Program-made: the position numbers and the translations under genes | Notes under the pieces: generated by a model | The model's input: the letters and a program-made list of their open reading frames with translations, nothing else | Told to the model about the DNA's origin: nothing | Databases searched by the model: none | Shown: positions 4,115 to 29,644 of the stretch, one piece after another | Numbering within the stretch: position 1 is the first letter of the stretch | How the letters are laid out: every line of letters begins with the position of its first letter | From: Candidatus Methylomirabilis limnetica | GTDB lineage: Bacteria; Methylomirabilota; Methylomirabilia; Methylomirabilales; Methylomirabilaceae | Reading direction: 5' to 3' | Assembly: GCF_003044035.1 (NCBI RefSeq) | Contig: NZ_NVQC01000015.1 | Span: forward strand, 30,001 to 62,000 | DNA length: 32,000 nt

Positions 4115-6490
4115 ATGGAACGAGGCGACGATAGACACACGTGCAGGCGTACAGCAGCCCTTGTGGGGCTGACAACATTCATGGCATGGAGCGCCTTCGC
4201 GGGTGAACGAGTCGTCTGGGCCCAGCTCCAGGCCACCCCGGATCCCCAGCAGGTAGCTCAGAAGGCACAGCGACGTCAGGAGCTTCTGGGCCAGTTGGAG
4301 CAGATCGAGAAGGAGCTTCAGGCGCTTGATCCGGAGGAGAAGGTTAGAGCCGCCCCACCTGCCCCTGCAGCCACTGTGAGTCAGCCAGTGGCCCCTCCGA
4401 CTCCAGGCGAACCGTTGGTCCTGGAGCCTGTCAAGGTGCTCGCCACCCGGATGGAGGAGAAGCCGGTTGGCCGGACCGTCAGCACGGTTGAGCAGGAGGA
4501 CATAGAGGACGCGCGGGCCTTCAGCGTCAGGGAGCTACTCGAGGCCACCCCAGGAGTCACCCTCTCGCAGGGGAACGGACCCCGTGATGTGGGCATCTCC
4601 ATTCGAGGGTCCGGCGCCAAGACCACCTTCGGCATCCGGAACATCAAGGTCTTCGATGACTGGTTTCCAGCCACCCAACCGGACGGCCTCTCGCGGACGG
4701 ACCTGAACGATCCCCATGCCTATGAGGGGGTCGATGTCCTGCGAGGGCCCTCATCGTCACTCTATGACAACTACGCCCTCGGAGGCGTGGTCAATTTCCG
4801 CACCCGCAAAGGGCGCGACATTCGAGGCGTTGAGGTAGGGAATGAGGGCGGGAGCTACGGCTATTCGAACCACTACGTCCAGATCGGGGATCAGCTCGAC
4901 AAGCTCGAGTACTCCCTCTTTGGAAGCCACGTCCGGGGTGACGGCTTCCTGGGCAACAGCAAATTCCACACCACCACTGAAAACCTGGTGGCCACCTTCA
5001 CCCCGGATGAGAAGCGATCGATCACGCTGAAGTTCATCAATAATGACATTGACACCAGGACTCCAAGCCGCCTGACGCTGGCGGAATTTCGAGCCAATCC
5101 ACTGAGCGCAGGGCGAACCTTTGTGACCGGCAAGGGCTTCGTCACCGCCGAGCAGGCGCGCCAGGGGAGAAACGATAATCGCACGATTGTCGGCGCCCGA
5201 TACGAACATCAACTGGACGCGCAGACCGGGTTCCGCCTCCTGGGGAGCTATGATTACAAGGACATTAACCAGACCTTCGGAACGATAGGTGATAACGAGA
5301 ATCCGAGCTTTAACGCCTATGGCGACATCACCCGGGAAGGAACCCTGTGGGGCCTTGCGGCGAAACACTATGCAGGCTTCTTCTTCAATTACATGGAGCA
5401 GGAATCGAGCAACTTCTTCAACCTGGCCGACTACCATGGCAGCCGCGGCGACTTGCAGGCCAATTCCCGAGGCCACATCCGCAATATCGGGGGTCGAGTG
5501 CGGGAGGAGGTCCAGTTCTCGCCGCGATGGATCGGGTACCTTGGGGTGGGTGTGGAGGGCTCGGAGATCCGGACCACAGTCCGATCCCGCAACAGCACGA
5601 CCGCCCCGCTCAGCAGGGTCGATGTGAGTCGCGACTTCATAAATGTGGCGCCGGAGGCAGGGGTGATCTATCGCGTAAACCCGGACCTCCAGATCCGTGG
5701 GCGGGTAGCGACCGCCTACGGCATCCCGGGGATCGGCGATCTGACTACGGCTACGACAGGGCTCGCGGGGAACAATACCGGCTTGAAGACGCAGCGCAAT
5801 GTCGGGGTGGAGCTGGGGATCGATGTCCGACCCCTGCCGACTGTCACGGCAAGCCTGACGGGCTACTACGAGTTCTACTTCAACGAATTCGTCCGACAGT
5901 CGCCCGGCGCGGGCATGTCGTCCTTTACCAGTAACGCCCCCAACGCCGAGCATCGCGGGATCGAGGCGGAGCTGGCCTGGCGGCCATTCGCGGGGGCGAA
6001 GGTATCAACCGCATACACCTTCAACGACCACATCTACACAGAGTTTACGGAAAGTATCTGCTCCAGTGCAGCGTACAAGAGTTTCGATAGGAGCGGCAAT
6101 AAGATCCCGGGCGTTGAACGGCATTTCCTGAACGCGAGGATCGCGTACGACACAAGCCATCGCAGCGAGTGGTGGCGCGGGGCGGGCGGATGGCTGGAGG
6201 TCAACTGGTTGAACGATTACTTCGTGAACAACAGCAACACGCTGAAGACTGAGCCCTACCAACTGGTGAACCTGAACCTCCATTACGACCGCGAGGTCAC
6301 GATCCCCTTTGTCCGATCGATGTCGGCCTTCTTTGAGATTCAGAATCTGTTCGACGCAACCTACATGGCAAGCGCCAACGTCGTGGCCGATGCGCTCAGC
6401 GATACGCCGGCCAATCTGGCGACGTCAAAGCAGGCCTTTTTCGCCGGCCAGCCGCGATCCTATTTTGCCGGCCTCAAGCTCAGATTTTAG
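4115..6490 (+). CDS. TonB-dependent outer-membrane receptor (substrate unknown) with an N-terminal coiled-coil/Pro-rich extension
   Basis: AGGAGG lies 8 nt before the ATG. Plug motifs are present (VDVLRGPSSSLYDNYALGGVVNF). There is a long beta-barrel region and a C-terminal YFAGLKLRF with terminal Phe. The gene follows exbBD-tonB. Confidence 0.9.
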   Translation: MERGDDRHTCRRTAALVGLTTFMAWSAFAGERVVWAQLQATPDPQQVAQKAQRRQELLGQLEQIEKELQALDPEEKVRAAPPAPAATVSQPVAPPTPGEPLVLEPVKVLATRMEEKPVGRTVSTVEQEDIEDARAFSVRELLEATPGVTLSQGNGPRDVGISIRGSGAKTTFGIRNIKVFDDWFPATQPDGLSRTDLNDPHAYEGVDVLRGPSSSLYDNYALGGVVNFRTRKGRDIRGVEVGNEGGSYGYSNHYVQIGDQLDKLEYSLFGSHVRGDGFLGNSKFHTTTENLVATFTPDEKRSITLKFINNDIDTRTPSRLTLAEFRANPLSAGRTFVTGKGFVTAEQARQGRNDNRTIVGARYEHQLDAQTGFRLLGSYDYKDINQTFGTIGDNENPSFNAYGDITREGTLWGLAAKHYAGFFFNYMEQESSNFFNLADYHGSRGDLQANSRGHIRNIGGRVREEVQFSPRWIGYLGVGVEGSEIRTTVRSRNSTTAPLSRVDVSRDFINVAPEAGVIYRVNPDLQIRGRVATAYGIPGIGDLTTATTGLAGNNTGLKTQRNVGVELGIDVRPLPTVTASLTGYYEFYFNEFVRQSPGAGMSSFTSNAPNAEHRGIEAELAWRPFAGAKVSTAYTFNDHIYTEFTESICSSAAYKSFDRSGNKIPGVERHFLNARIAYDTSHRSEWWRGAGGWLEVNWLNDYFVNNSNTLKTEPYQLVNLNLHYDREVTIPFVRSMSAFFEIQNLFDATYMASANVVADALSDTPANLATSKQAFFAGQPRSYFAGLKLRF

Positions 6491-8867: not shown

Positions 8868-11800
8868 TTATTGGCCCGCGGAATCCGGATCATAATTCAG
8901 GTTCGGCGAAAGCCAGCGCTCAACCGTCCGCACATCCATCTGCTTGCGCCTGGCGTAGTCCAACACCTGATCCCGTCCGACTTTTCCGACCGCAAAGTAG
9001 ATCGCCTCAGGATGGGAAAAGTAGAACCCGCTCACCGAGCTGGCCGGAACCATCGCGCAATTGTCTGTCAGGTACATACCGGCGTTGCGCTCCGCTTGTA
9101 GAAGATCGAAGAGCATTTGTTTCTCAGAGTGATCCGGACAGGCTGGATAGCCAGGAGCAGGACGGATCCCACGATACCTCTCTCGGATCAGATCCTCGTT
9201 GCTGAGCTGTTCTCCGACTCCATACCCCCACTCTGCTCGAACCCGGCGATGCAGGCATTCCGTGAAGGCCTCCGCCAGGCGATCGGCCAACGCTTTGGCT
9301 AGAATAGAGGTATAGTCGTCATAGGAGGCTTCATATCGCTTGCAGAGGACATCGAGCCCGTGGCCGGTCGTCACGGCAAACGCGCCGAGATGGTCCGGGA
9401 GTCCGGTCGATCTGGGCGCGATAAAATCGGCCAGCGCCAGATTACACTGCCCTTCGGCCTTGTGTAGTTGCTGACGGAGGGTGTGAAAGGTCGCCAGCAC
9501 CTGCGACCGCGAGTCATCCGTGTAGAGTTCAATATCGTCGTCCACGCTGTTCGCCGGGAAGAACCCATAGACCGCCCGCGCGGTGAGCCAGCGCTGGCTG
9601 ACAATTTGCTCCAGCAAGCGCTGGCCATCCTCGAACAGCTCCATGGCTTTGGGCTTCTGTAAGATCTCAGGGTACCGGCCCCGCACCTCCCACGCATGAA
9701 AGAACGGCGTCCAATCAATCAATGGCACGATCTGGTCGAGCGGAAACTCGTCCAGCACGCGGATACCAGTGAAGGACGGCTTTGGGATGTCTGCTACCCC
9801 CCAATCAATGGGGTGTTTCCGGTCTCGCGCCTGGGTAAGCGTGAGCAACGCCCTCAGATCGCGGTCTTGGTGCGCTTGTCTCACCCGCTCCTGGTCAACT
9901 CGATTGCTTTCGACAAACGCCGATCGCTGTTCCTGGCTTAAGAGATGACCGACGACCCCCACGGCCCGGGAGGCATCCGAGACGTGGACCACCGGCTGGT
10001 CATAGAGTGGAGCGATTTTCACGGCCGTATGGGTTCTGCTGGTAGTCGCGCCGCCGATCAAGAGCGGAACGTGAAGCCCTTCTCGCATCAGCTCCCGCGC
10101 TACGTGCGCCATCTCATCGAGCGACGGGGTGATCAGCCCGCTCAGACCAATAATATCCACCTGTTGTTCCCGGGCGGTCTTGAGGATCGTGTCGCACGGC
10201 ACCATCACCCCCAGGTCGATAATCTCATAGTTGTTGCATCCGAGCACGACCCCGACAATATTCTTGCCGATATCGTGCACATCTCCCTTCACGGTGGCCA
10301 TGAGGACTTTCCGCTGTTTGCGCTTACTGTCAGATGCCAGGTGCGCGGCCTCAATAAAGGGTAGGAGGTAGGCCACCGCCCTTTTCATGACACGCGCGGT
10401 TTTGATCACCTGCGGCAAGAACATCTGCCCGGAGCCGAAGAGTTGGCCGACGAGGTTCATGCCGGCCATTAGCGGACCCTCAATGACCTGAAGCGGCCTG
10501 TCATACTGCTGCCGCGCTTCTTCCACGTCCGACTCGATATACTCCACGATCCCCTTCACCAACGCATGTGTGAGCCGTTCTTCGACCGTTCCCCGTCGCC
10601 AGGCCTCGTCTTTGCCGGCAACCTGACCCTGCTGTGTCACAGTCTCCGCAAACCTCACCAGCCGATCGGTCGCATCGGAACGACGGTTGAGCAGCACGTC
10701 TTCAACCAGCTCGAGCAGGTCCTTGGGAATCTCCTCGTAGACCGTCAGTTGCCCGGCATTCACGATCCCCATATCCAGGCCGGCCTGGATGGCATGGTAT
10801 AGGAATGCCGAGTGCATCGCCTCGCGGATCAGATTGTTCCCACGAAACGAGAACGAAATGTTACTGATCCCGCCGCTGACCTTGCAGTGAAGCAGGTTGG
10901 CCTTGATCCAGCGGCATGCCTCGATGAAGTTGACCGCGTAGTTGTTATGCTCCTCAAGCCCGGTCGCCACCGTCAGAATGTTCGGATCGAAGATGATGTC
11001 TTGTGGTGGCAACCCGGCCGTCTCGGTCAGAATCCGGTATGCGCGGGCACAGATCTCGATCTTGCGCTGTAGTGTATCGGCCTGCCCAAGCTCATCGAAG
11101 GCCATGACCACGACCGCAGCCCCATATCGTTTGATGAGCCGGGCCCGCTGGATGAACACCTGTTCGCCCTCTTTGAGGCTGAGTGAGTTCACCACCGGCT
11201 TGCCCTGTACGCACTTCAGCCCCGCCTCAATCACCGACCAGTCGGAGCTATCGATCATGATGGGCACCCGCGCAATGTCAGGCTCGGTGGCGACCAGGTG
11301 CAGAAACGTCACCATCGCCTCTTTCGAGTCCAGCATGCCCTCATCCATGTTGACATCGATGATCTGGGCGCCGCCCTCGACCTGTTGGCGCGCTACGGAG
11401 ACGGCGGCCTCGTACTCGCCGTTCCGAATGAGCTTGGCAAACATCGTGGACCCGCTGACATTGGTCCGCTCCCCGATATTAACGAAACCCACGCCGGGAC
11501 AAACCGTCAATGGCTCCAGACCGCTTAATCGGGTGTGCGGCTGAGGTTGAGGGGGAATGCGCGGCTGAAAGTCCTGCACTGCCGTCGCAATCGCCTCAAT
11601 ATGAGCCGGGGTCGTGCCGCAGCAGCCACCGACGATGTTGAGCCAGCCGCTCCTCGCAAAGTCGCTCAGGTCAGCAGCCATGATGGCCGGTGTTTCATCG
11701 AACCCCCCGAACGCGTTGGGTAAGCCGGCGTTGGGATAGCAGCTCAGGAGTACCGGGGCAATCTGAGCGAGCTCCTCGACGTACGGGCGCATCTGCTTCG

Positions 11801-12560
11801 CCCCAAGCGCGCAGTTGATGCCTACCGAGAGCAGCGGCATGTGGGCAATGGAGTTCCAAAAAGCTTCTACCGTTTGCCCGGCGAGCGTGCGACCGCTACG
11901 ATCCGTAATGGTCACCGAGACCATGACCGGTACGCGTCGGCCAAGTTCCTCGAGGTACTGATCGATGGCAAACAGCGCGGCCTTACCGTTCAGCGTGTCA
12001 AAGATCGTCTCTACCAACAGGATATCCACTCCGCCGTCCAGGAGCCCACGGACCTGCTCGGTATAGGCTGCGACCAACTGATCGAAGGTAACGGCACGGA
12101 AGGCAGCGTTATGGAGATCGGGCGACATCGATGCCGTGCGATTCGTCGGACCGATCGCGCCGGCCACGAAGCGCGGGCGGCTCGGGTCTGTCGCCATCAC
12201 TGCCAGGGCGGCTTTGCGCGCTGCTCTCGCGCCGGCGACATTCAGGTCATAGGCCAGCGATTCCAACCGATAATCCGCCATCGAGATCGACGTGGAATTG
12301 AACGTGTTGGTTTCGATGATATCGGCGCCAGCTTCCAGATACTGGCGATGAATCGCCTCAATGATGGCCGGCTGCGTGATGGACAGCAGGTCGTTGCACC
12401 CCTTGAGATCGCAGGGGTGGTTGGCAAATGGTTGCCCCCGAAAGTCGGCTTCCTCCAGCTTATGCGCTTGAATCATCGTACCCATCGCGCCGTCAAGAAT
12501 GACGATGCGACGCCGCAACATCTGCTCAAACGCTATCAACCGATCTGACGCTTCAGTCAT
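8868..12560 (-). CDS. metH: Cobalamin-dependent methionine synthase
   Basis: About 1230 aa with all modules present: a homocysteine-binding N-terminus, a pterin-binding region, the cobalamin motif [15 protein letters not shown] (DxHxxG), and a C-terminal AdoMet-activation domain. ATG 12560 (MTEASDR...) is preferred; GTG 12578 is possible. Confidence 0.95.
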
Positions 12561-12648
12561 TTGAATGCCATACCTCACATCTGCTCAGCTCTCCGCTGCC
12601 CATTTCGCCCACAACCGTCACCAGCGCCCCCGCAAGTCAAGCGTGCTC

Positions 12649-17768: not shown

Positions 17769-17844
<76 letters not shown>

Positions 17845-17852
17845 CACAAAAA

Positions 17853-17923
17853 CAGCGATTAGCGATTAGCCATCAGCAAGTTACGGTAAACACCCCCGGA
17901 TTCTTCCTGATGGCTGATAGCTC
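17853..17923. repeat. Inter-tRNA spacer hairpin built from heptamer repeats
   Basis: cagcgat tagcgat tagccat cagcaag opposes ttcctga tggctga tagctc. AGCCATCAGCAAG (17868-17880) pairs with CTTCCTGATGGCT (17903-17915), 12 of 13 positions. Confidence 0.7.
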
Positions 17924-17932
17924 TCATACTAG

Positions 17933-18006
17933 TGCGCCCAGGGAGACTCGAACTCCCGACCTACTGCTTAGAAGGCAGCCGCTCTATCCGGCTGAGCTAT
18001 GGGCGC
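17933..18006 (-). tRNA. tRNA-Arg (anticodon TCT), CCA not encoded
   Basis: Reverse complement is GCGCCCATAGCTCAGCCGGATAGAGCGGCTGCCTTCTAAGCAGTAGGTCGGGAGTTCGAGTCTCCCTGGGCGCA, followed by CTA rather than CCA. Confidence 0.9.
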
Positions 18007-18015
18007 CTCCTCAAG

Positions 18016-18095
18016 TAGTCATCAGCAATCAGCTTTCAGCGAGGCGCGCAAAGCATCTCCTAATCTTTCCTGAACGCTGATGGCTGATGGCTGTT
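18016..18095. repeat. Inter-tRNA spacer hairpin built from heptamer repeats
   Basis: CATCAGCAATCAGCTTTCAG (18020-18039) pairs with CTGAACGCTGATGGCTGATG (18070-18089), 18 of 20 complementary. Units are AGCNNTC / GCTGATG. Confidence 0.7.
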
Positions 18096-18099
18096 ATCG

Positions 18100-18176
<77 letters not shown>

Positions 18177-18184
18177 AAGAGAAC

Positions 18185-18226
18185 AGGGTATAGGGGTTAG
18201 ACCCTCTACTCTTGACCCTAAACCCT
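18185..18226. repeat. Inter-tRNA spacer hairpin, GGGTATA/CCCTAAA heptamer type
   Basis: AGGGTATAGGGG (18185-18196) pairs with ACCCTAAACCCT (18215-18226), 10 of 12 complementary. Confidence 0.6.
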
Positions 18227-18232
18227 TTTTTA

Positions 18233-18308
18233 TGGGGTGAACGAAGGGACTCGAACCCTCAACCCCTGGAGCCACAGTCCAGTGCTCTGCCATTGAGCTA
18301 CGCTCACC
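18233..18308 (-). tRNA. tRNA-His (anticodon GTG) with encoded G-1 and CCA
   Basis: Reverse complement is GGTGAGCGTAGCTCAATGGCAGAGCACTGGACTGTGGCTCCAGGGGTTGAGGGTTCGAGTCCCTTCGTTCACCCCA. The extra 5' G is typical of tRNA-His. Confidence 0.9.
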
Positions 18309-18321
18309 ATACGAACCGCAC

Positions 18322-18404
18322 AGGGTATAGGGTATAGAAAACGGAACCCATTCTAACCCACCGCCTCAATCCCTACACCCTAGACCCTCTACCCTAAACC
18401 CTAT
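18322..18404. repeat. Inter-tRNA spacer: AGGGTAT x2 arm opposing a CCCTNNA x5 arm
   Basis: agggtat agggtat aga (18322-18338) opposes ccctaca ccctaga ccctcta ccctaaa ccctat (18371-18404). Confidence 0.75.
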
Positions 18405-18408
18405 TTCG

Positions 18409-18486
18409 TGGTGCGCCTGGCCCGATTTGAACGGGCGGCCCACGGCTTCGGAGGCCGTTGCTCTATCCGGGCTGAGCTACAGGCGC
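18409..18486 (-). tRNA. tRNA-Arg (anticodon CCG), CCA encoded
   Basis: Reverse complement is GCGCCTGTAGCTCAGCCCGGATAGAGCAACGGCCTCCGAAGCCGTGGGCCGCCCGTTCAAATCGGGCCAGGCGCACCA. Confidence 0.9.
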
Positions 18487-18494
18487 GCAAGACC

Positions 18495-18583
18495 AGGGTA
18501 TAGCGTTTAGGGTATAGGATGTAAAGGTACTCCGCAGCAATCCCGTCTCGTCCCTACACCCTAGACCTTCTACCCTAAACCCC
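18495..18583. repeat. Inter-tRNA spacer: AGGGTAT-type arm opposing a CCCTNNA arm; the right arm is near-identical to that of the previous spacer
   Basis: agggtat agcgttt agggtat aggatgt aaagg (18495-18527) opposes ccctaca ccctaga ccttcta ccctaaa cccc (18552-18583). About 45 nt next to the tRNA 3' end are shared with 18370-18408, with 3 differences. Confidence 0.75.
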
Positions 18584-18589
18584 ATTTCG

Positions 18590-18666
<77 letters not shown>

Positions 18667-22348: not shown

Positions 22349-22459
22349 GTCAGTTCTCTCATCCTACAGCAGCGCACCAGCAAGTTCGAACATCCTCTGA
22401 AAGGAATTATGCCCCTGCGTCCCGGTGTTGTGAAACGCATAGGGCCAACCCGGAAAGAC

Positions 22460-22495
22460 AAAAAGCTCACACGTAATGTTACGTGTGAGCTTTTT
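22460..22495 (-). terminator. Symmetric (bidirectional) rho-independent terminator ending the rrn operon
   Basis: AAAAAGCTCACACGTAA-tgt-TACGTGTGAGCTTTTT. The stem is perfect with A and T runs on both sides. It lies 8 nt downstream of 5S. Confidence 0.85.
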
Positions 22496-22502
22496 AAAAT
22501 GC

Positions 22503-22620
22503 TCCTGGCGGCGACCTACTCTCCCACGCAGTTGCCCACGTAGTACCATCGGCGCTGGAGGACTTCACTTCCGTGTTCGGGATGGGAACGGGTGTTTCCC
22601 CTCCGCTATAGCCACCAGGA
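22503..22620 (-). rRNA. rrf: 5S ribosomal RNA
   Basis: Reverse complement is TCCTGGTGGCTATAGCGGAGGGGAAACACCCGTTCCCATCCCGAACACGGAAGTGAAGTCCTCCAGCGCCGATGGTACTACGTGGGCAACTGCGTGGGAGAGTAGGTCGCCGCCAGGA. Helix I pairs end to end. Confidence 0.95.
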
Positions 22621-22689
22621 ACCTTGCAAGAAGTTTTCCGAGTTCTTATAACTTATCGTCGAGTCAACACATTGCTTCTCAATACTGAT

Positions 22690-23010
22690 CTATGGGACTG
22701 AACTAACCCAAATTCTATCCTTAATTCTAGCGAATTGTTTGCGTCCCAGCACCTTCTTACCAATCACTTGGTCAAGCTTACGATATGGTCGGTGTCGAAC
22801 GATTCGCTCGGCTGCTTCTTTCCCAATACCAGGAAGCTTCGAAAGCTCTCGAACTGTCGCTGCATTCAGATCAGTCTTACGCAGTGTTGACTTGCTAGTG
22901 GCAGTGATCTCTTTGGGCGTTGTATGCCTAGTGGGTTCAGACCCTACGCCAAAAGCCGCGAGGCCTATCGCCACGATAATGCATATGACCACACAAGCGA
23001 TCCGTTTCAT
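22690..23010 (-). CDS. ComEA-like helix-hairpin-helix DNA-binding protein with N-terminal anchor/signal, located in the 23S-5S spacer
   Basis: MKRIACVVICIIVAIGLAAF is followed by LNAATVRELSKLPGIGKEAAERIVRHRPYRKLDQVIG (HhH motif). A GTG at 23013 is an alternative start. There is no strong SD. Same strand as the rRNAs. Confidence 0.7.
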   Translation of the reverse strand: MKRIACVVICIIVAIGLAAFGVGSEPTRHTTPKEITATSKSTLRKTDLNAATVRELSKLPGIGKEAAERIVRHRPYRKLDQVIGKKVLGRKQFARIKDRIWVSSVP

Positions 23011-23043
23011 CACCAGGAATCCAGAATAGAGTTAAGAAATAAT

Positions 23044-26070
<3,027 letters not shown>

Positions 26071-26127
26071 CCAATTATTACCTAACTCGAGGTCTGTATT
26101 CATTGGAGACACGGATCGTTTATTCAA

Positions 26128-26140
26128 TTGTCAAAGAGCA
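26128..26140 (-). promoter_or_regulatory. boxA-like antitermination element in the 16S-23S spacer
   Basis: The minus strand reads TGCTCTTTGACAA, compare E. coli rrn boxA TGCTCTTTAACAA. The same 13-mer occurs in the 16S leader. Confidence 0.65.
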
Positions 26141-26213: not shown

Positions 26214-26289
26214 TGGTGGAGATGAGCGGAATCGAACCGCTGACCCCCTGCTTGCAAAGCAGGTGCTCTCCCGACTGAGCTACATCCCC
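26214..26289 (-). tRNA. tRNA-Ala (anticodon TGC) in the ITS
   Basis: Reverse complement is GGGGATGTAGCTCAGTCGGGAGAGCACCTGCTTTGCAAGCAGGGGGTCAGCGGTTCGATTCCGCTCATCTCCACCA. The G3:U70 identity pair is present. Confidence 0.95.
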
Positions 26290-26363: not shown

Positions 26364-26440
26364 TGGTGGGCCTTCCTGGGATCGAACCAGAGACCTCACG
26401 CTTATCAAGCGTGCGCTCTAACCAGCTGAGCTAAAGGCCC
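26364..26440 (-). tRNA. tRNA-Ile (anticodon GAT) in the ITS
   Basis: Reverse complement is GGGCCTTTAGCTCAGCTGGTTAGAGCGCACGCTTGATAAGCGTGAGGTCTCTGGTTCGATCCCAGGAAGGCCCACCA. Confidence 0.95.
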
Positions 26441-26598: not shown

Positions 26599-28160
<1,562 letters not shown>

Positions 28161-28260: not shown

Positions 28261-28273
28261 TTGTCAAAGAGCA
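28261..28273 (-). promoter_or_regulatory. boxA-like antitermination element in the rrn leader
   Basis: The minus strand reads TGCTCTTTGACAA about 100 nt upstream of 16S. It is identical to the copy at 26128-26140. Confidence 0.65.
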
Positions 28274-28317: not shown

Positions 28318-28346
28318 AATGTAAGTCATCGAGCCGCAAGTGTCAA
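28318..28346 (-). promoter_or_regulatory. Candidate rrn sigma70 promoter
   Basis: The minus strand reads TTGACA (28346-28341), a 17-nt spacer, then TACATT (28323-28318). This is about 160 nt upstream of mature 16S. Confidence 0.55.
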
Positions 28347-28399
28347 TGGCATACAGCGACAATCACGATTTGGAAGATACAGCAACTACCCTATAGCTG

Positions 28400-29644
28400 T
28401 CAAGTGTTATTTAGTGGTTGAGCGTTCTTTTTAACCTTCCGAAAAAATCGCTTTCCCACTCTCAGCAAGTGTTCCTGATCTATCGAGATCTTCGCATGTT
28501 CATCCCGTACGACTTCCCCATCAAGGCTGACGCCACCCTGACGGATGAGCCGCCTAGCGTCTGAGAGGCTCCTCGCCCCCCCTGATTCCTTAATCAACCA
28601 CACGACATCAACGGCGGATATCTCATCTACTATGAACACATTGATGTTGTCCGGTAGCCCCTTTTCTCTGAATATTCGATCGAACTCGCGAGTCGCCTCC
28701 TCGCCAGCCCTCTCTCCATGATAGAGCGCAACCAGCTTCCTGGCCACCTCTGCTTTAGCTGTCCTGGGATGAAGCGTGCCAAGCTTTAGCCCCTCATCCA
28801 TTGCCGCTATAGCCTCCGGCGACATTCCGGCCACCAGCTCGGCATATTTCACAATGAGCGCATCAGGAATCGACATCGTCTTCCCGTATACCTCCTTGGC
28901 TGGCTCTTCAATCCCAATGTAGTTGCCGAGGCTCTTGCTCATCTTTTGAACCCCATCGGTTCCTTCAAGCAGGGGCGTGATGATCGCAACCTGAGGCTCC
29001 TGGCCATGATCCCGCTGCAGCTCCCGTCCCACAAGGAGGTTAAACTTTTGATCGGTACCACCCAACTCGACATCGGCCCTGAGTACCACGGAGTCATGCC
29101 CTTGAGCCAGCGGGTAGAGGAACTCATGGACGCCAATTGGTCGCCCCTCCCGGTAGCGCTTTTGAAAATCGTCCCGTTCCAGGATCCGAGCAACCGTGTA
29201 CTGCGCCGCCAGGCGGATCACGTGGGCAAAGTCCATTCGACTCAGCCATTCACTGTTGAAACGGATCTCCGTTCGGCCTTGATCGAGGATCTGAAAGATC
29301 TGCCTCTTATAGGTTTCCGCGTTGGCCTGAATCTCCTCAACGCTCAGCGGCTTGCGAGTCTCTGATCTGCCAGTCGGGTCGCCGATCATCCCGGTGAAAT
29401 CGCCAATCAGGAAGATCACCTGATGGCCAAGATCCTGAAACTGGCGCAGTTTTCTCAGTACGACCGTGTGACCAAGGTGTAGGTCAGGCGCTGAGGGGTC
29501 GGCGCCGAGCTTGACGCGCAGCGGGACGCCCGTCCGCAGTGAGCGCTCTAACTTCCCGAGCAGCTCTTCCTCGGAAATGATCTCCACCGCGCCTCGCCGG
29601 AGGACACGAAGTTGCTCATAGGCTCGCGCTTTCACATCGTCCAT
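28400..29644 (-). CDS. tyrS: Tyrosine--tRNA ligase
   Basis: Class I signatures HLGH ([10 protein letters not shown]) and KMSKSLGN are present, with a C-terminal S4-like domain ([15 protein letters not shown]). ATG 29644 (MDDVKARAY...) is preferred over the longer ORF-track start. Confidence 0.9.

Follow-up and report, generated by a model that had tools for sequence, protein, structure and literature searches.

A helix-hairpin-helix protein gene conserved between the 23S and 5S rRNA genes of Methylomirabilis and related NC10 bacteria

Ribosomal RNA operons are usually seen as dedicated, untranslated and antiterminated transcription units. To our knowledge, the passengers that they carry are tRNAs, or else selfish ORFs within the rRNA genes. 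A 32,000 nt stretch of the Candidatus Methylomirabilis limnetica genome (contig NZ_NVQC01000015.1, positions 30,001 to 62,000; here called the window, with coordinates counted from its first nucleotide) has a reading frame for a helix-hairpin-helix (HhH) protein in the spacer between 23S and 5S. This raises the question of whether the frame is a recent foreign arrival, as an earlier note on this DNA had proposed, or a resident part of the operon, and of how it might be expressed. Taken as a whole, the comparison of related loci makes it likely that this is a vertically inherited, functional gene, now fixed in the Methylomirabilis/NC10 rRNA operon and expressed by the mechanism proposed below. 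In the literature searched, a gene in this position is described neither for these bacteria nor for any others, a weak result given that most subscription journals lie outside its scope.

The 23S-5S spacer does carry a real coding gene, on the same strand as the rRNAs. Rfam places the 3' end of 23S at 23045 and the 5' end of 5S at 22619, where approximately 23044 and 22620 had been estimated, and the spacer is 425 nt between these ends, against an earlier figure of about 423 nt. All features of the operon described here are on the minus strand. The gene occupies 22690..23013 and, read from the GTG at 23013 or the ATG at 23010, encodes 107 or 106 aa, the latter as claimed in the earlier note. 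Its product is 100% identical to WP_107561572.1 of Ca. Methylomirabilis limnetica, an accession that corresponds to the ATG form, and the GTG start codon is kept throughout the Methylomirabilis-like clade. A gap of 70 nt (22620..22689) separates the stop codon from 5S; in relatives this gap is 4 to 70 nt, with a median of 33. The GC contents previously given for the ORF (about 49%), the gap (about 39%) and metH (about 60%) are 0.49, 0.37 and 0.59 on computation, the last for a 1236 aa ORF at 8868-12578 that is presumably the metH gene meant. Gene callers extend the ORF of the 23S-5S spacer too far, into the 23S gene.

The operon reads, in order, promoters, boxA, 16S, tRNA-Ile, tRNA-Ala, boxA, 23S, HhH gene, 5S and terminator. 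Two tandem sigma-70-type promoter-like sites are upstream of 16S (28318..28403), P1 at 28403-28374 (TTGACA-18-TATCTT) and P2 at 28346-28318 (TTGACA-17-TACATT), each with 10/12 matches to the consensus, from which alone their putative function is judged. The 16S leader contains the boxA-like antitermination motif GCTCTTTGACAA (28261..28272), which is taken here to resemble the boxA of E. coli (TGCTCTTTAACAA). A second boxA-like motif is in the 23S leader (26128..26139), making two copies in the window where 0.09 would be expected, and it is found at the same place in all 14 of the fetched loci that include the 23S leader. The 16S gene (26600..28160; Rfam RF00177, 1593.9 bits, full length) bears the anti-SD sequence CCTCC at its 3' end and is followed by tRNA-Ile (GAT) at 26364..26440 and tRNA-Ala (TGC) at 26214..26289, both in the 16S-23S spacer, and then by 23S (23045..26070; RF02541, 2956.4 bits, model positions 1-2925). 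The 5S gene occupies 22503..22621 (Rfam 22619-22503). An intrinsic terminator-like hairpin with a T tract (22458..22495, -29 kcal/mol) ends the operon, and an equivalent hairpin is present 3' of 5S in 11/11 loci examined. In several loci, cofolding also suggests a helix that brackets 5S and the terminator, its 3' arm being beyond the terminator.

A total of 105 related loci with both boundaries were identified, and in every one the same ORF is found intact in the 23S-5S interval. They contain 82 distinct spacers of 411 to 470 nt, and in all 82 the ORF is at least 100 aa, the length used here to define an intact frame. The boundaries were set by Rfam or tblastn/BLAST for 26 loci (sets of 7 and of 4 loci, 11 GTDB species representatives, and 4 more, including that of Ca. 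M. oxyfera) and by BLAST for 80 more. The 23S end is lost at a contig edge in 2 of the 11 GTDB species representatives. For the 80 metagenome loci, 5S follows the gene in every case and the 23S end precedes it in 77, the other 3 being cut by the contig end. An empty site, for which the earlier note had suggested that relatives be searched, was found in none of the 105 loci. The sampled loci extend to a 16S identity to the window of 90.8% and a 23S identity of 84.8%, with a deep, high-GC clade at approximately 91% in 16S, and protein identity falls to 28%. The flanks are constant, with tyrS upstream and amidase, Germane and RNase PH downstream, joined in most by Ham1. No match with a Rokubacteria label was found. 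Two MAG labels are evidently wrong, these being 'Patescibacteria group' for locus L014 and 'Kofleriaceae' for locus L026.

The coding sequence is constrained as well as the location. The pN/pS of the HhH domain is 0.04-0.46, mostly 0.1-0.2, and differences at codon positions 1, 2 and 3 are 0.29, 0.19 and 0.58, an excess at the third position. By these counts the HhH domain is under purifying selection. The omega of the whole gene is 0.33-0.46, compared with 0.23-0.51 for neighbouring envelope genes. Since the gene is present in every relative examined and has been kept intact by selection, it is a long-standing and fixed component of the operon, not foreign DNA that was inserted recently. That it is conserved, selected and resident in the operon is, on these sequence comparisons, almost certain.

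In the earlier note the locus had been read as one where a foreign gene recently entered the 23S-5S spacer through microhomology or target-site duplication, with the 9-mer TTCCTGGTG as its mark. There are indeed exactly two copies of this 9-mer in the window, one at each junction (23019-23011 and 22621-22613), and removal of one copy with the intervening sequence would leave a spacer of 27 nt, close to the 25 nt or so anticipated. The GC content of the ORF, 0.49, is also below the 0.54-0.59 of the neighbouring genes. However, the downstream copy is the conserved 5' end of 5S, the Rfam 5S start being 2 nt inside it, and the upstream copy (23011..23019) is lineage-specific and no conserved repeat. 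No locus other than that of the window has TTCCTGGTG upstream. The nearest relatives differ from it at 1 or 2 bases, with TTCTTGGTG or TTCTCGGTG in its place, and in distant ones the sequence is unrelated. Two or more copies of the 9-mer also arise in 3 of 100 shuffles of the window. Across the family, a word of at least 8 nt is shared by the two junctions in 1 of the 82 distinct spacers, that of the window, and junction matches are the same as in shuffled controls (mean 5.06 vs 5.20). A 9-mer at the junctions is found in about 0.5% of shuffles per locus, or about 0.4 loci expected among 82. The bracket formed by the two copies is therefore no more than chance would supply. The base composition argues against a recent arrival too, as the GC content of the ORF rises with that of the host across lineages (r = 0.70; ORF range 0.49-0.65 in this comparison, and up to 0.67 in L018) and the low GC of the window ORF is common to other rRNA spacers, such as the 16S-23S spacer at 0.43. 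With the same site occupied by the gene in all relatives examined, that is in 82/82 distinct spacers and at 16S identities down to 91%, a recent insertion is extremely unlikely. No mobility signature is found at the locus, repeats not being conserved and synteny being fixed. The gene must have been inserted at one time, but the event dates back to a distant ancestor and no recognisable scar of it is left.

The protein was described in the earlier note as a ComEA-like, exported or anchored HhH protein with a clear HhH motif and an N-terminal anchor or signal helix, a description that is supported. Residues 47-101 (22711..22875) form a strongly basic (HhH)2 domain that matches Pfam HHH_3 (PF12836) with 48.8 bits against a gathering threshold of 27 (E 7.5e-13). 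At the N-terminus (22945..23010), an n-region with K and R precedes a hydrophobic helix of approximately 18 residues, a putative signal peptide or signal anchor that is apparent in hydrophobicity and as a helix at residues 2-19 of the structural model. The hydrophobic core is present in 81 of 82 family members, with K or R before it in 79, and the proteins of the deep clade have WLAAAQ-type A-x-A sites. By hydrophobicity analysis, the protein is putatively exported or membrane-anchored. The domain has a median net charge of +7 and a range of +2 to +12, and the window protein has a pI of about 11.

The best PDB sequence match of the window protein is 2duy (E 8.5e-10). A model of the domain only (pLDDT 65.5) superposes on 2duy with a TM of 0.78-0.80 and an rmsd of 2.2 A, and on the Geobacillus ComEA 8dss_B with a TMq of 0.76 and an rmsd of 1.5 A. 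Foldseek with this model gives a probability of 1.00, yet E values of only 9e-3 to 4e-2. The full-length model gave no usable matches in a fold search (E at least 0.66), because its floppy N-terminus dominates. PsbU chains in the PDB also match (E 3e-8, TM 0.55-0.68). Of the PsbU models, Pfam PF06514 scores barely above its cut-off (24.9 bits vs 24.5) and NCBIfam NF002708 far below it (30.8 vs 85). Although the public annotation of the protein is 'ComEA family', the NCBIfam ComEA cut-offs are not reached (TIGR01259, 33.1 bits vs 152.35; TIGR00426, 25.0 vs 53.1), and the second hairpin of the family is degenerate, with LG[RK]K in place of GIG. DNA binding is thus not assured, and whether the HhH protein binds DNA in the periplasm is, from its sequence, an evenly poised question. 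Its role is most likely that of a periplasmic nucleic-acid-binding protein.

The gene appears to have no expression signals of its own, in keeping with what had been noted from the sequence. The anti-SD duplex before the ORF is -3.1 kcal/mol, compared with -8 to -13 for most genes of the window, and a canonical SD is absent in all clades examined. In the Methylomirabilis-like clade the GTG start does overlap with an SD-like GGTGA, which is however not placed to serve it. Promoter-like sites before the ORF are not above shuffles, and their -10 element is not conserved. The ORF shares its strand with 23S and 5S, and the only hairpin of the terminator type is that 3' of 5S, none being found ahead of the ORF or between it and 5S; all related loci are alike in this. 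In some lineages only 4-18 nt separate the stop codon from 5S, too few for 5S to have a promoter of its own. With no SD, no promoter of its own and no earlier terminator, transcription within the pre-rRNA, as previously suggested, is the simplest reading.

The start of the gene coincides with a structure of the 23S precursor. Cofolding pairs the 23S leader (26071..26118) with the trailer (22998..23044) in a processing helix of -57.8 kcal/mol. The 3' strand of this helix takes in the upstream 9-mer together with the GTG/ATG start and codons 2-5, with ACGGATCG at 23005-22998 pairing with CGATCCGT in the leader. A consensus leader-trailer helix is formed in 6 related loci, with compensatory changes in 3 pairs, and the helix is predicted for each of the 11 loci in which 23S is complete. 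Compensatory pairs are seen in the two clades alike. In the deep clade the homologous helix stops approximately 10 nt before the ATG.

RNase III cuts the stems that flank 16S and 23S, freeing the precursors, as PMC6582327 describes. In the mechanism proposed, the HhH gene, with neither promoter nor SD of its own, would be read by the antiterminated polymerase of the rRNA operon and its mRNA made within the pre-rRNA. In the primary transcript its start codon would be inside the long leader-trailer helix of 23S, on which RNase III normally acts, in the clade of the window and just past it in the deep clade, so that processing of 23S would make the 5' end of the mRNA. Maturation of the 5' end of 5S would make its 3' end, and the freed mRNA, with its short leader, would be translated without an SD from the GTG or ATG. 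That the gene is co-transcribed with the rRNA and released by processing is somewhat probable given the arrangement of the operon. Two points count against it. Once RNase III has cut, the leader fragment might remain annealed to the lower part of the helix and keep the start codon masked, and a short lifetime and poor translation would be expected of an SD-less mRNA with a 5' monophosphate. The strictest form of the proposal would have a gene fixed and selected since before the diversification of Methylomirabilis/NC10, its mRNA coming solely from the pre-rRNA, cut out by the nucleases of 23S and 5S, and its SD-less start unmasked only when the helix is processed; this is about as likely as not.

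An internal promoter might drive the gene and 5S, at least in part, from a -35 element formed by the conserved 3' end of 23S (TTGACC) and a -10 element in the trailer, giving a near-leaderless mRNA that would be independent of pre-rRNA processing. In the window, TTGACC-18-TATTCT at 23052-23023 has 9/12 matches and would place the start a few nt before the GTG, and the missing SD would suit a leaderless message. The subclade of L018, L020 and L022 has TATCAT or TATGAT (5/6) 17-18 nt after TTGACC, a match that about 0.05 of shuffles reach in each. Such a promoter is nonetheless unlikely, as the best -10 scores of 21 lineages average 3.52, compared with 3.09 when shuffled, with most lineages at chance, the hexamer of L005 has lost its A at position 2, TTGACC is constrained in any case by helix 1 of 23S, and the promoter-like sites of the region do not exceed shuffles.

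It is also conceivable that the ORF is untranslated, the spacer being kept for a role of its RNA in rRNA maturation and the frame being a relic, as has been proposed for the S23p ORF of Coxiella. Two features would fit, the missing SD and a start codon in or beside a processing helix, and the ORF of the Coxiella intervening sequence (IVS), in a like situation, is apparently untranslated and decaying (PMC4990558). However, none of the 82 distinct copies is broken, even though protein identities go down to 28%, with the third-position excess and the low pN/pS of the domain (about 0.1-0.2) given above. The character of a signal peptide is kept although its sequence is not, there are significant matches in Pfam, PDB and fold searches, and the spacer RNA has no excess structure, so a relic is very unlikely. 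A structured RNA in place of an mRNA was considered and rejected, the folding of the spacer being that of shuffles (z = -0.26). The idea that the rRNA genes and an unrelated gene were brought together by faulty assembly or binning deserves almost no credence. While rRNA regions misassemble easily, and the labels of the L014 and L026 MAGs are evidently wrong, the same arrangement recurs in over 100 contigs that come from many samples and were assembled independently, two of them 2.7 Mb and 1.6 Mb long, and boundaries and flanking synteny are consistent throughout.

If expression from the pre-rRNA is true, synthesis of an exported, putatively DNA-binding protein would be coupled to ribosome production, and all of the 5S rRNA in the cell would come from transcripts that also bear an mRNA. 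The locus would then be a natural system for the translation of an mRNA excised from pre-rRNA, with a 5' monophosphate, no SD and residual duplex. It would likewise serve for the study of possible competition between translation and 5S maturation, where the stop codon is as near as 4-18 nt, and of the reason for tying a ComEA-like protein to ribosome synthesis. In addition, the 23S-5S spacer of approximately 425 nt is a lineage marker for rRNA contigs of the NC10 type, and it reveals rRNA contigs that have been mis-binned.

In natural competence, ComEA serves as the DNA receptor, either periplasmic or anchored in the membrane; it binds double-stranded DNA and is needed for transformation. Like ComEA, including the 'ComEA-related protein' of Thermus (2duy), the spacer protein has an N-terminal signal or anchor followed by a basic (HhH)2 domain. 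It differs in being only about 106 aa, with no additional N-terminal domain, in scoring far under the NCBI ComEA models, and in its second hairpin. We know of no ComEA gene inside an rRNA operon. PsbU, a 12-kDa extrinsic subunit of photosystem II, is of similar size and has a signal peptide and the same HhH fold. The hosts of the spacer gene are presumably non-phototrophic methanotrophs or denitrifiers without photosystem II, and the likeness to PsbU exists because the fold is shared.

The S23p ORFs of the 23S IVS in Coxiella, Leptospira and others also place a frame on the pre-rRNA beside a helix cleaved by RNase III, with a poor or absent SD (PMC4990558). The IVS is, however, inside mature 23S (helix 45), and is described as a selfish element with inverted repeats of its own (PMC4990558), whereas the spacer gene is in every member of its clade, is under purifying selection and encodes a cellular-type, putatively exported protein. 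An element of the IVS type was rejected for the window, as the ORF is outside a full-length 23S match that ends at model position 2925, with z = -0.26 for the spacer; on the 5' side of the spacer there is no helix apart from the normal one between 23S leader and trailer. Homing-endonuclease genes of rRNA introns and insertions, for example in CPR bacteria, are likewise protein genes within rRNA transcription units (PMC11270868), but they are mobile and interrupt the rRNA genes themselves, while the spacer gene has no mobility signature. The tRNA genes of rRNA spacers are co-transcribed passengers that are freed by the nucleases of rRNA processing, as is proposed for the spacer gene, although here the passenger is an mRNA that must also be translated. 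Reduced genomes of the Buchnera type have rRNA and ORFs in one transcription unit, according to PMC7761764. In those symbionts the operons are unlinked and rearranged and the ORFs flank an rRNA gene, whereas here the ORF is between 23S and 5S in a canonical, linked operon of free-living bacteria.

A complete rRNA operon was identified using Rfam on the minus strand of the window. The 16S rRNA (28160-26600) is followed by tRNA-Ile(GAT) (26440-26364), tRNA-Ala(TGC) (26289-26214), the 23S rRNA (26070-23045), and the 5S rRNA (22619-22503). A 425-nt spacer separates the 23S from the 5S and carries an ORF on the rRNA strand, from a GTG at 23013 or an ATG at 23010 to a stop codon at 22692-22690, encoding 107 or 106 aa. 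This protein gene is ancient, fixed, and under selection within the rRNA operon, and its start codon falls inside the predicted 23S processing helix. The values in the earlier note, made from the sequence alone, are essentially right: the GC content is 0.49 for the ORF and 0.37 for the 70-nt gap between its stop and the 5S. The 1236-aa ORF at 8868-12578 (GC 0.59) is taken to be the metH used there for comparison. Compared to the Rfam bacterial consensus, the 23S rRNA of the window has insertions at 25700-25790 and 25410-25440, for example approximately 17 and 25 extra nt near model positions 282-312 and approximately 15 near 583.

A protein search identified 37 relatives of the ORF product with 98-40% identity and a profile search identified 568. 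In every context fetched, the gene follows the 23S 3' end and precedes the 5S 5' end. These contexts were the related loci L001-L012, 11 GTDB species representatives labelled Methylomirabilota, NC10 or Methylomirabilis (2 of which begin at a contig end and contain the 5S side only), Ca. M. oxyfera and three others, and 80 metagenome loci. By BLAST, the 5S is directly 3' in 80 of the 80 metagenome loci and the 23S end directly 5' in 77, the remaining 3 being cut by the contig end. The earlier note had proposed looking for relatives without the segment; the 105 pooled loci with both boundaries, representing 82 distinct spacers, all carry a spacer of 411-470 nt (median 424). In all 82 the ORF is intact, is at least 100 aa long, and has a conserved P-Y-x-x-L-D core. 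Across the loci, identity to the window ranges from 99.9% down to 90.8% for the 16S and down to 84.8% for the 23S, and pairwise protein identity is as low as 28%. Wherever the contig extends, the flanks are constant, with tyrS upstream and amidase, Germane, and RNase PH genes downstream; most loci also have Ham1 and a tRNA array. Such constancy suggests that the rrn locus is single and conserved.

The sole defective copy seen is in L023 (1-366), where the ORF is frameshifted. This MAG is presumably nanopore-derived, judging from its project prefix, and the frameshift may be a sequencing error. Two contigs with other labels, L014 (DATMXF010000118.1, 'Patescibacteria group bacterium') and L026 (JAIOIT010000043.1, 'Kofleriaceae bacterium'), carry a Methylomirabilota-type 23S, the spacer gene, and the 5S, with amidase, Germane, RNase PH, Ham1, and DUF179 synteny in L026. 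Both appear to be mis-binned rRNA contigs. In the window the tRNA array is at 17769-18666 on the minus strand, 3' of the Ham1-like gene, and encodes Pro-Arg-His-Arg-Arg-Lys (ARAGORN, with Rfam agreeing on six); comparable arrays are in most related loci (L003, L005, L009, L011, L024, L026-L028). Gene callers often over-extend the ORF upstream into the 23S gene (L017 1-60; L027 6001-6015; proteins P0019 and P0039-P0048), giving 130 aa instead of approximately 113-115 aa. The extra N-terminus, 'VRLDP(K/N)F…', is the translated 23S 3' end, GTGCGGCTTGACCCC.

The CDS itself is already in public databases, since WP_107561572.1 (Ca. Methylomirabilis limnetica), a 'helix-hairpin-helix domain-containing protein', is 100% identical to the window protein. 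Domain, fold, and codon evidence all bear out the earlier view that the ORF is a real protein-coding gene. Its product matches HHH_3 of Pfam at 48.8 bits, against a gathering threshold of 27. Matches of the family profile in the PDB are the Thermus 'ComEA-related protein' 2duy (E 8.5e-10), PsbU chains (approximately 3e-8), and ComEA 8dss (2e-6). In the full-length AlphaFold model, an N-terminal helix (2-19) and a disordered linker (20-42) precede a helical domain. Modelled alone, the domain has four helices (pLDDT 65.5) and resembles 2duy (TM 0.78-0.80, rmsd 2.2 A) and Geobacillus ComEA (TM 0.76, rmsd 1.5 A), followed by PsbU, to which the similarity is one of common fold. The window protein misses the NCBI ComEA cut-offs and is named ComEA/PsbU-like, not a ComEA. 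The C-terminal domain carries a strong positive charge across the family (net +2 to +12, median +7), and the pI of the window protein is approximately 11. Of the 82 members, 81 have a hydrophobic N-terminal third and 79 have K or R in front of it, and classical A-x-A sites (WLAAAQ) are found in the deep clade, the distant high-GC relatives. With its signal or anchor, basic (HhH)2 domain, and resemblance to ComEA, the product may be a nucleic-acid-binding protein that is periplasmic or faces outward. Growth-rate-coupled expression is a possible reason for its tie to the rRNA operon; a historical accident that later became fixed would explain it equally well.

Selection is evident in the codons. 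Mean pairwise differences at codon positions 1, 2, and 3 are 0.29, 0.19, and 0.58, and pN/pS in the HhH domain is 0.04-0.46, mostly 0.1-0.2. The amino acids of the N-terminal third evolve near-neutrally, its hydrophobicity nonetheless being kept. Comparison of the window with close relatives gives a whole-gene omega of 0.33-0.46, against 0.23-0.51 for the adjacent amidase and Germane genes and 0.07 for RNase PH. The spacer RNA shows no excess of structure over shuffled sequence (z = -0.26), thus what is conserved is the protein rather than a structured RNA. Between the window and L001 or L003, ORF dS is 0.39-0.49, exceeding the 0.11-0.34 of neighbouring genes, and protein identity is 65-76%, despite near-identical 16S sequences. 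This divergence could make the spacer gene a high-resolution marker within Methylomirabilis.

The earlier note saw a recent foreign insertion with target duplication, on the basis of a 9-nt word present at 23019-23011 and again at 22621-22613; removing one copy and the sequence between them would leave 27 nt. That a gene is between the 23S and the 5S holds, but the repeat has no significance beyond that of shuffled sequence. Its downstream copy is the 5S 5' end. At the upstream position the nearest relatives have TTCTTGGTG (L001, L005) or TTCTCGGTG (L003), the 16S of L001 and L003 being 99.8-99.9% identical to that of the window, and more distant lineages have unrelated sequence. The longest exact word common to both junctions averages 5.06 nt over the 82 distinct loci and 5.20 nt in shuffled controls. 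Approximately 0.4 loci with a 9-mer are expected by chance among 82, and a word of at least 8 nt is found in the window alone. The repeat is a coincidence of the window's lineage. Across the related loci, ORF GC follows that of the host, ranging over 0.49-0.65 against 0.54-0.67 in the neighbouring amidase gene (r = 0.70). In the window, low GC is common to the ORF and the 16S-23S spacer (0.43). Upstream-copy divergence, junction words at chance level, and GC that tracks the host leave no evidence for a recent insertion or target duplication, a reading that is judged wrong, and the gene is at the same site in all 82 spacers. A gene anciently fixed here is of more interest than a recent arrival.

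Two promoter-like sites, each matching 10/12 positions, are 5' of the 16S. A boxA-like motif, GCTCTTTGACAA, is in the 16S leader (28261-28272, minus strand); its second and last copy in the window is in the 23S leader (26139-26128), immediately 5' of the 5' strand of the processing helix, with 0.09 copies expected by chance. The 23S-leader boxA is kept in the 14 of 14 loci covering that region. Transcription would end at a hairpin and T tract 3' of the 5S (-29 kcal/mol in the window), a terminator present in 11 of 11 loci examined. The stop-to-5S distance is 4-70 nt (median 33), and 15-18 nt in several independent lineages, which leaves no room for a separate 5S promoter, so the 5S is probably transcribed through the ORF. 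The boxA and terminator fit an antiterminated polymerase reading to that point. A promoter-like TTCACA-17-CATAAT (10/12; 22406-22434, minus strand), between this terminator and the Amidase_3 gene (22348-20702), is probably that gene's own promoter. Cofolding pairs approximately 22640-22660, 5' of the 5S, with 22440-22455, 3' of the terminator hairpin, enclosing the 5S and terminator, with equivalents in L003, L012, L018, and L020. Its 3' arm is past the T tract, and this predicted helix may be meaningless or relevant only on read-through transcripts.

Before the ORF there is a single promoter-like site, whose -35 is part of the conserved 23S 3' end and whose -10-like hexamer scores no better than chance in most lineages. 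A good one is found only in the related L018, L020, and L022, where TATCAT or TATGAT (5/6) is 17-18 nt after the 23S 3' TTGACC in the looped-out part of the trailer (the first approximately 35 nt past the 23S), a possible internal promoter restricted to that subclade. No clade has a Shine-Dalgarno (SD) sequence at a normal distance from the start. The 16S 3' end has CCUCC, and the anti-SD duplex energy before the ORF is -3.1 kcal/mol, whereas most real genes of the window have approximately -8 to -13. A conserved SD-like GGTGA(T), complementary to the 16S 3' end, overlies the GTG in the Methylomirabilis-like clade, to which the window belongs (23008-23014), and is GAGGTGA in the L012/L015/L016 group; at that distance it cannot serve the GTG. 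The GTG at 23013, conserved throughout this clade, is the candidate start codon, the ATG at 23010 being ATA or AAT in relatives. In L008 (approximately 6060-6070), ACG replaces the ATG conserved in its relatives L019 and P0034, leaving a TTG or an upstream ATG within the processing helix as its sole candidate starts.

The 23S leader and trailer are predicted to form a long helix (-42 to -84 kcal/mol in 11 loci), with 3 and 4 compensatory pairs in the consensus folds of the two clades. In the window's clade its 3' strand runs from 23044 to 22998, so that the upstream 9-mer, GTG/ATG start, and codons 2-5 all fall within it. The predicted pairing of trailer ACGGATCG with leader CGATCCGT explains the nucleotide-level conservation of K-R-I. 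In the deep clade (16S approximately 91% identical to the window), the homologous strand (…ACCCGATCGCTATTC) stops approximately 10 nt before the ATG. Helices of this type flanking the 16S and 23S are described as RNase III substrates whose cleavage releases rRNA precursors (PMC6582327). The missing signals, short gap before the 5S, boxA, and leader-trailer helix suggest release from the pre-rRNA as the simplest model. The start would be masked in the primary transcript, 23S processing would generate the mRNA 5' end and 5S maturation its 3' end, and the freed SD-less mRNA, with its short leader, could then be translated.

The usual passengers of rRNA spacers are tRNAs; here the passenger is a protein gene in the 23S-5S spacer. 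Full-text literature searches, in which subscription journals are thinly covered and a prior mention is possible, returned no description of a protein gene in this spacer. In reduced symbiont genomes, flanking ORFs can share transcription units with rRNA genes (summarised in PMC7761764), whereas this operon is canonical and linked and the gene is inside it. Homing endonucleases are encoded by rRNA introns and insertions (PMC11270868), unlike this non-mobile gene present in every member examined. The Coxiella S23p ORF, in a 23S intervening sequence, is likewise carried on pre-rRNA, but it belongs to a selfish element cut out by RNase III and is decaying and apparently untranslated (PMC4990558). 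The present gene is instead in the 23S-5S spacer, non-mobile, of cellular type, and under purifying selection.
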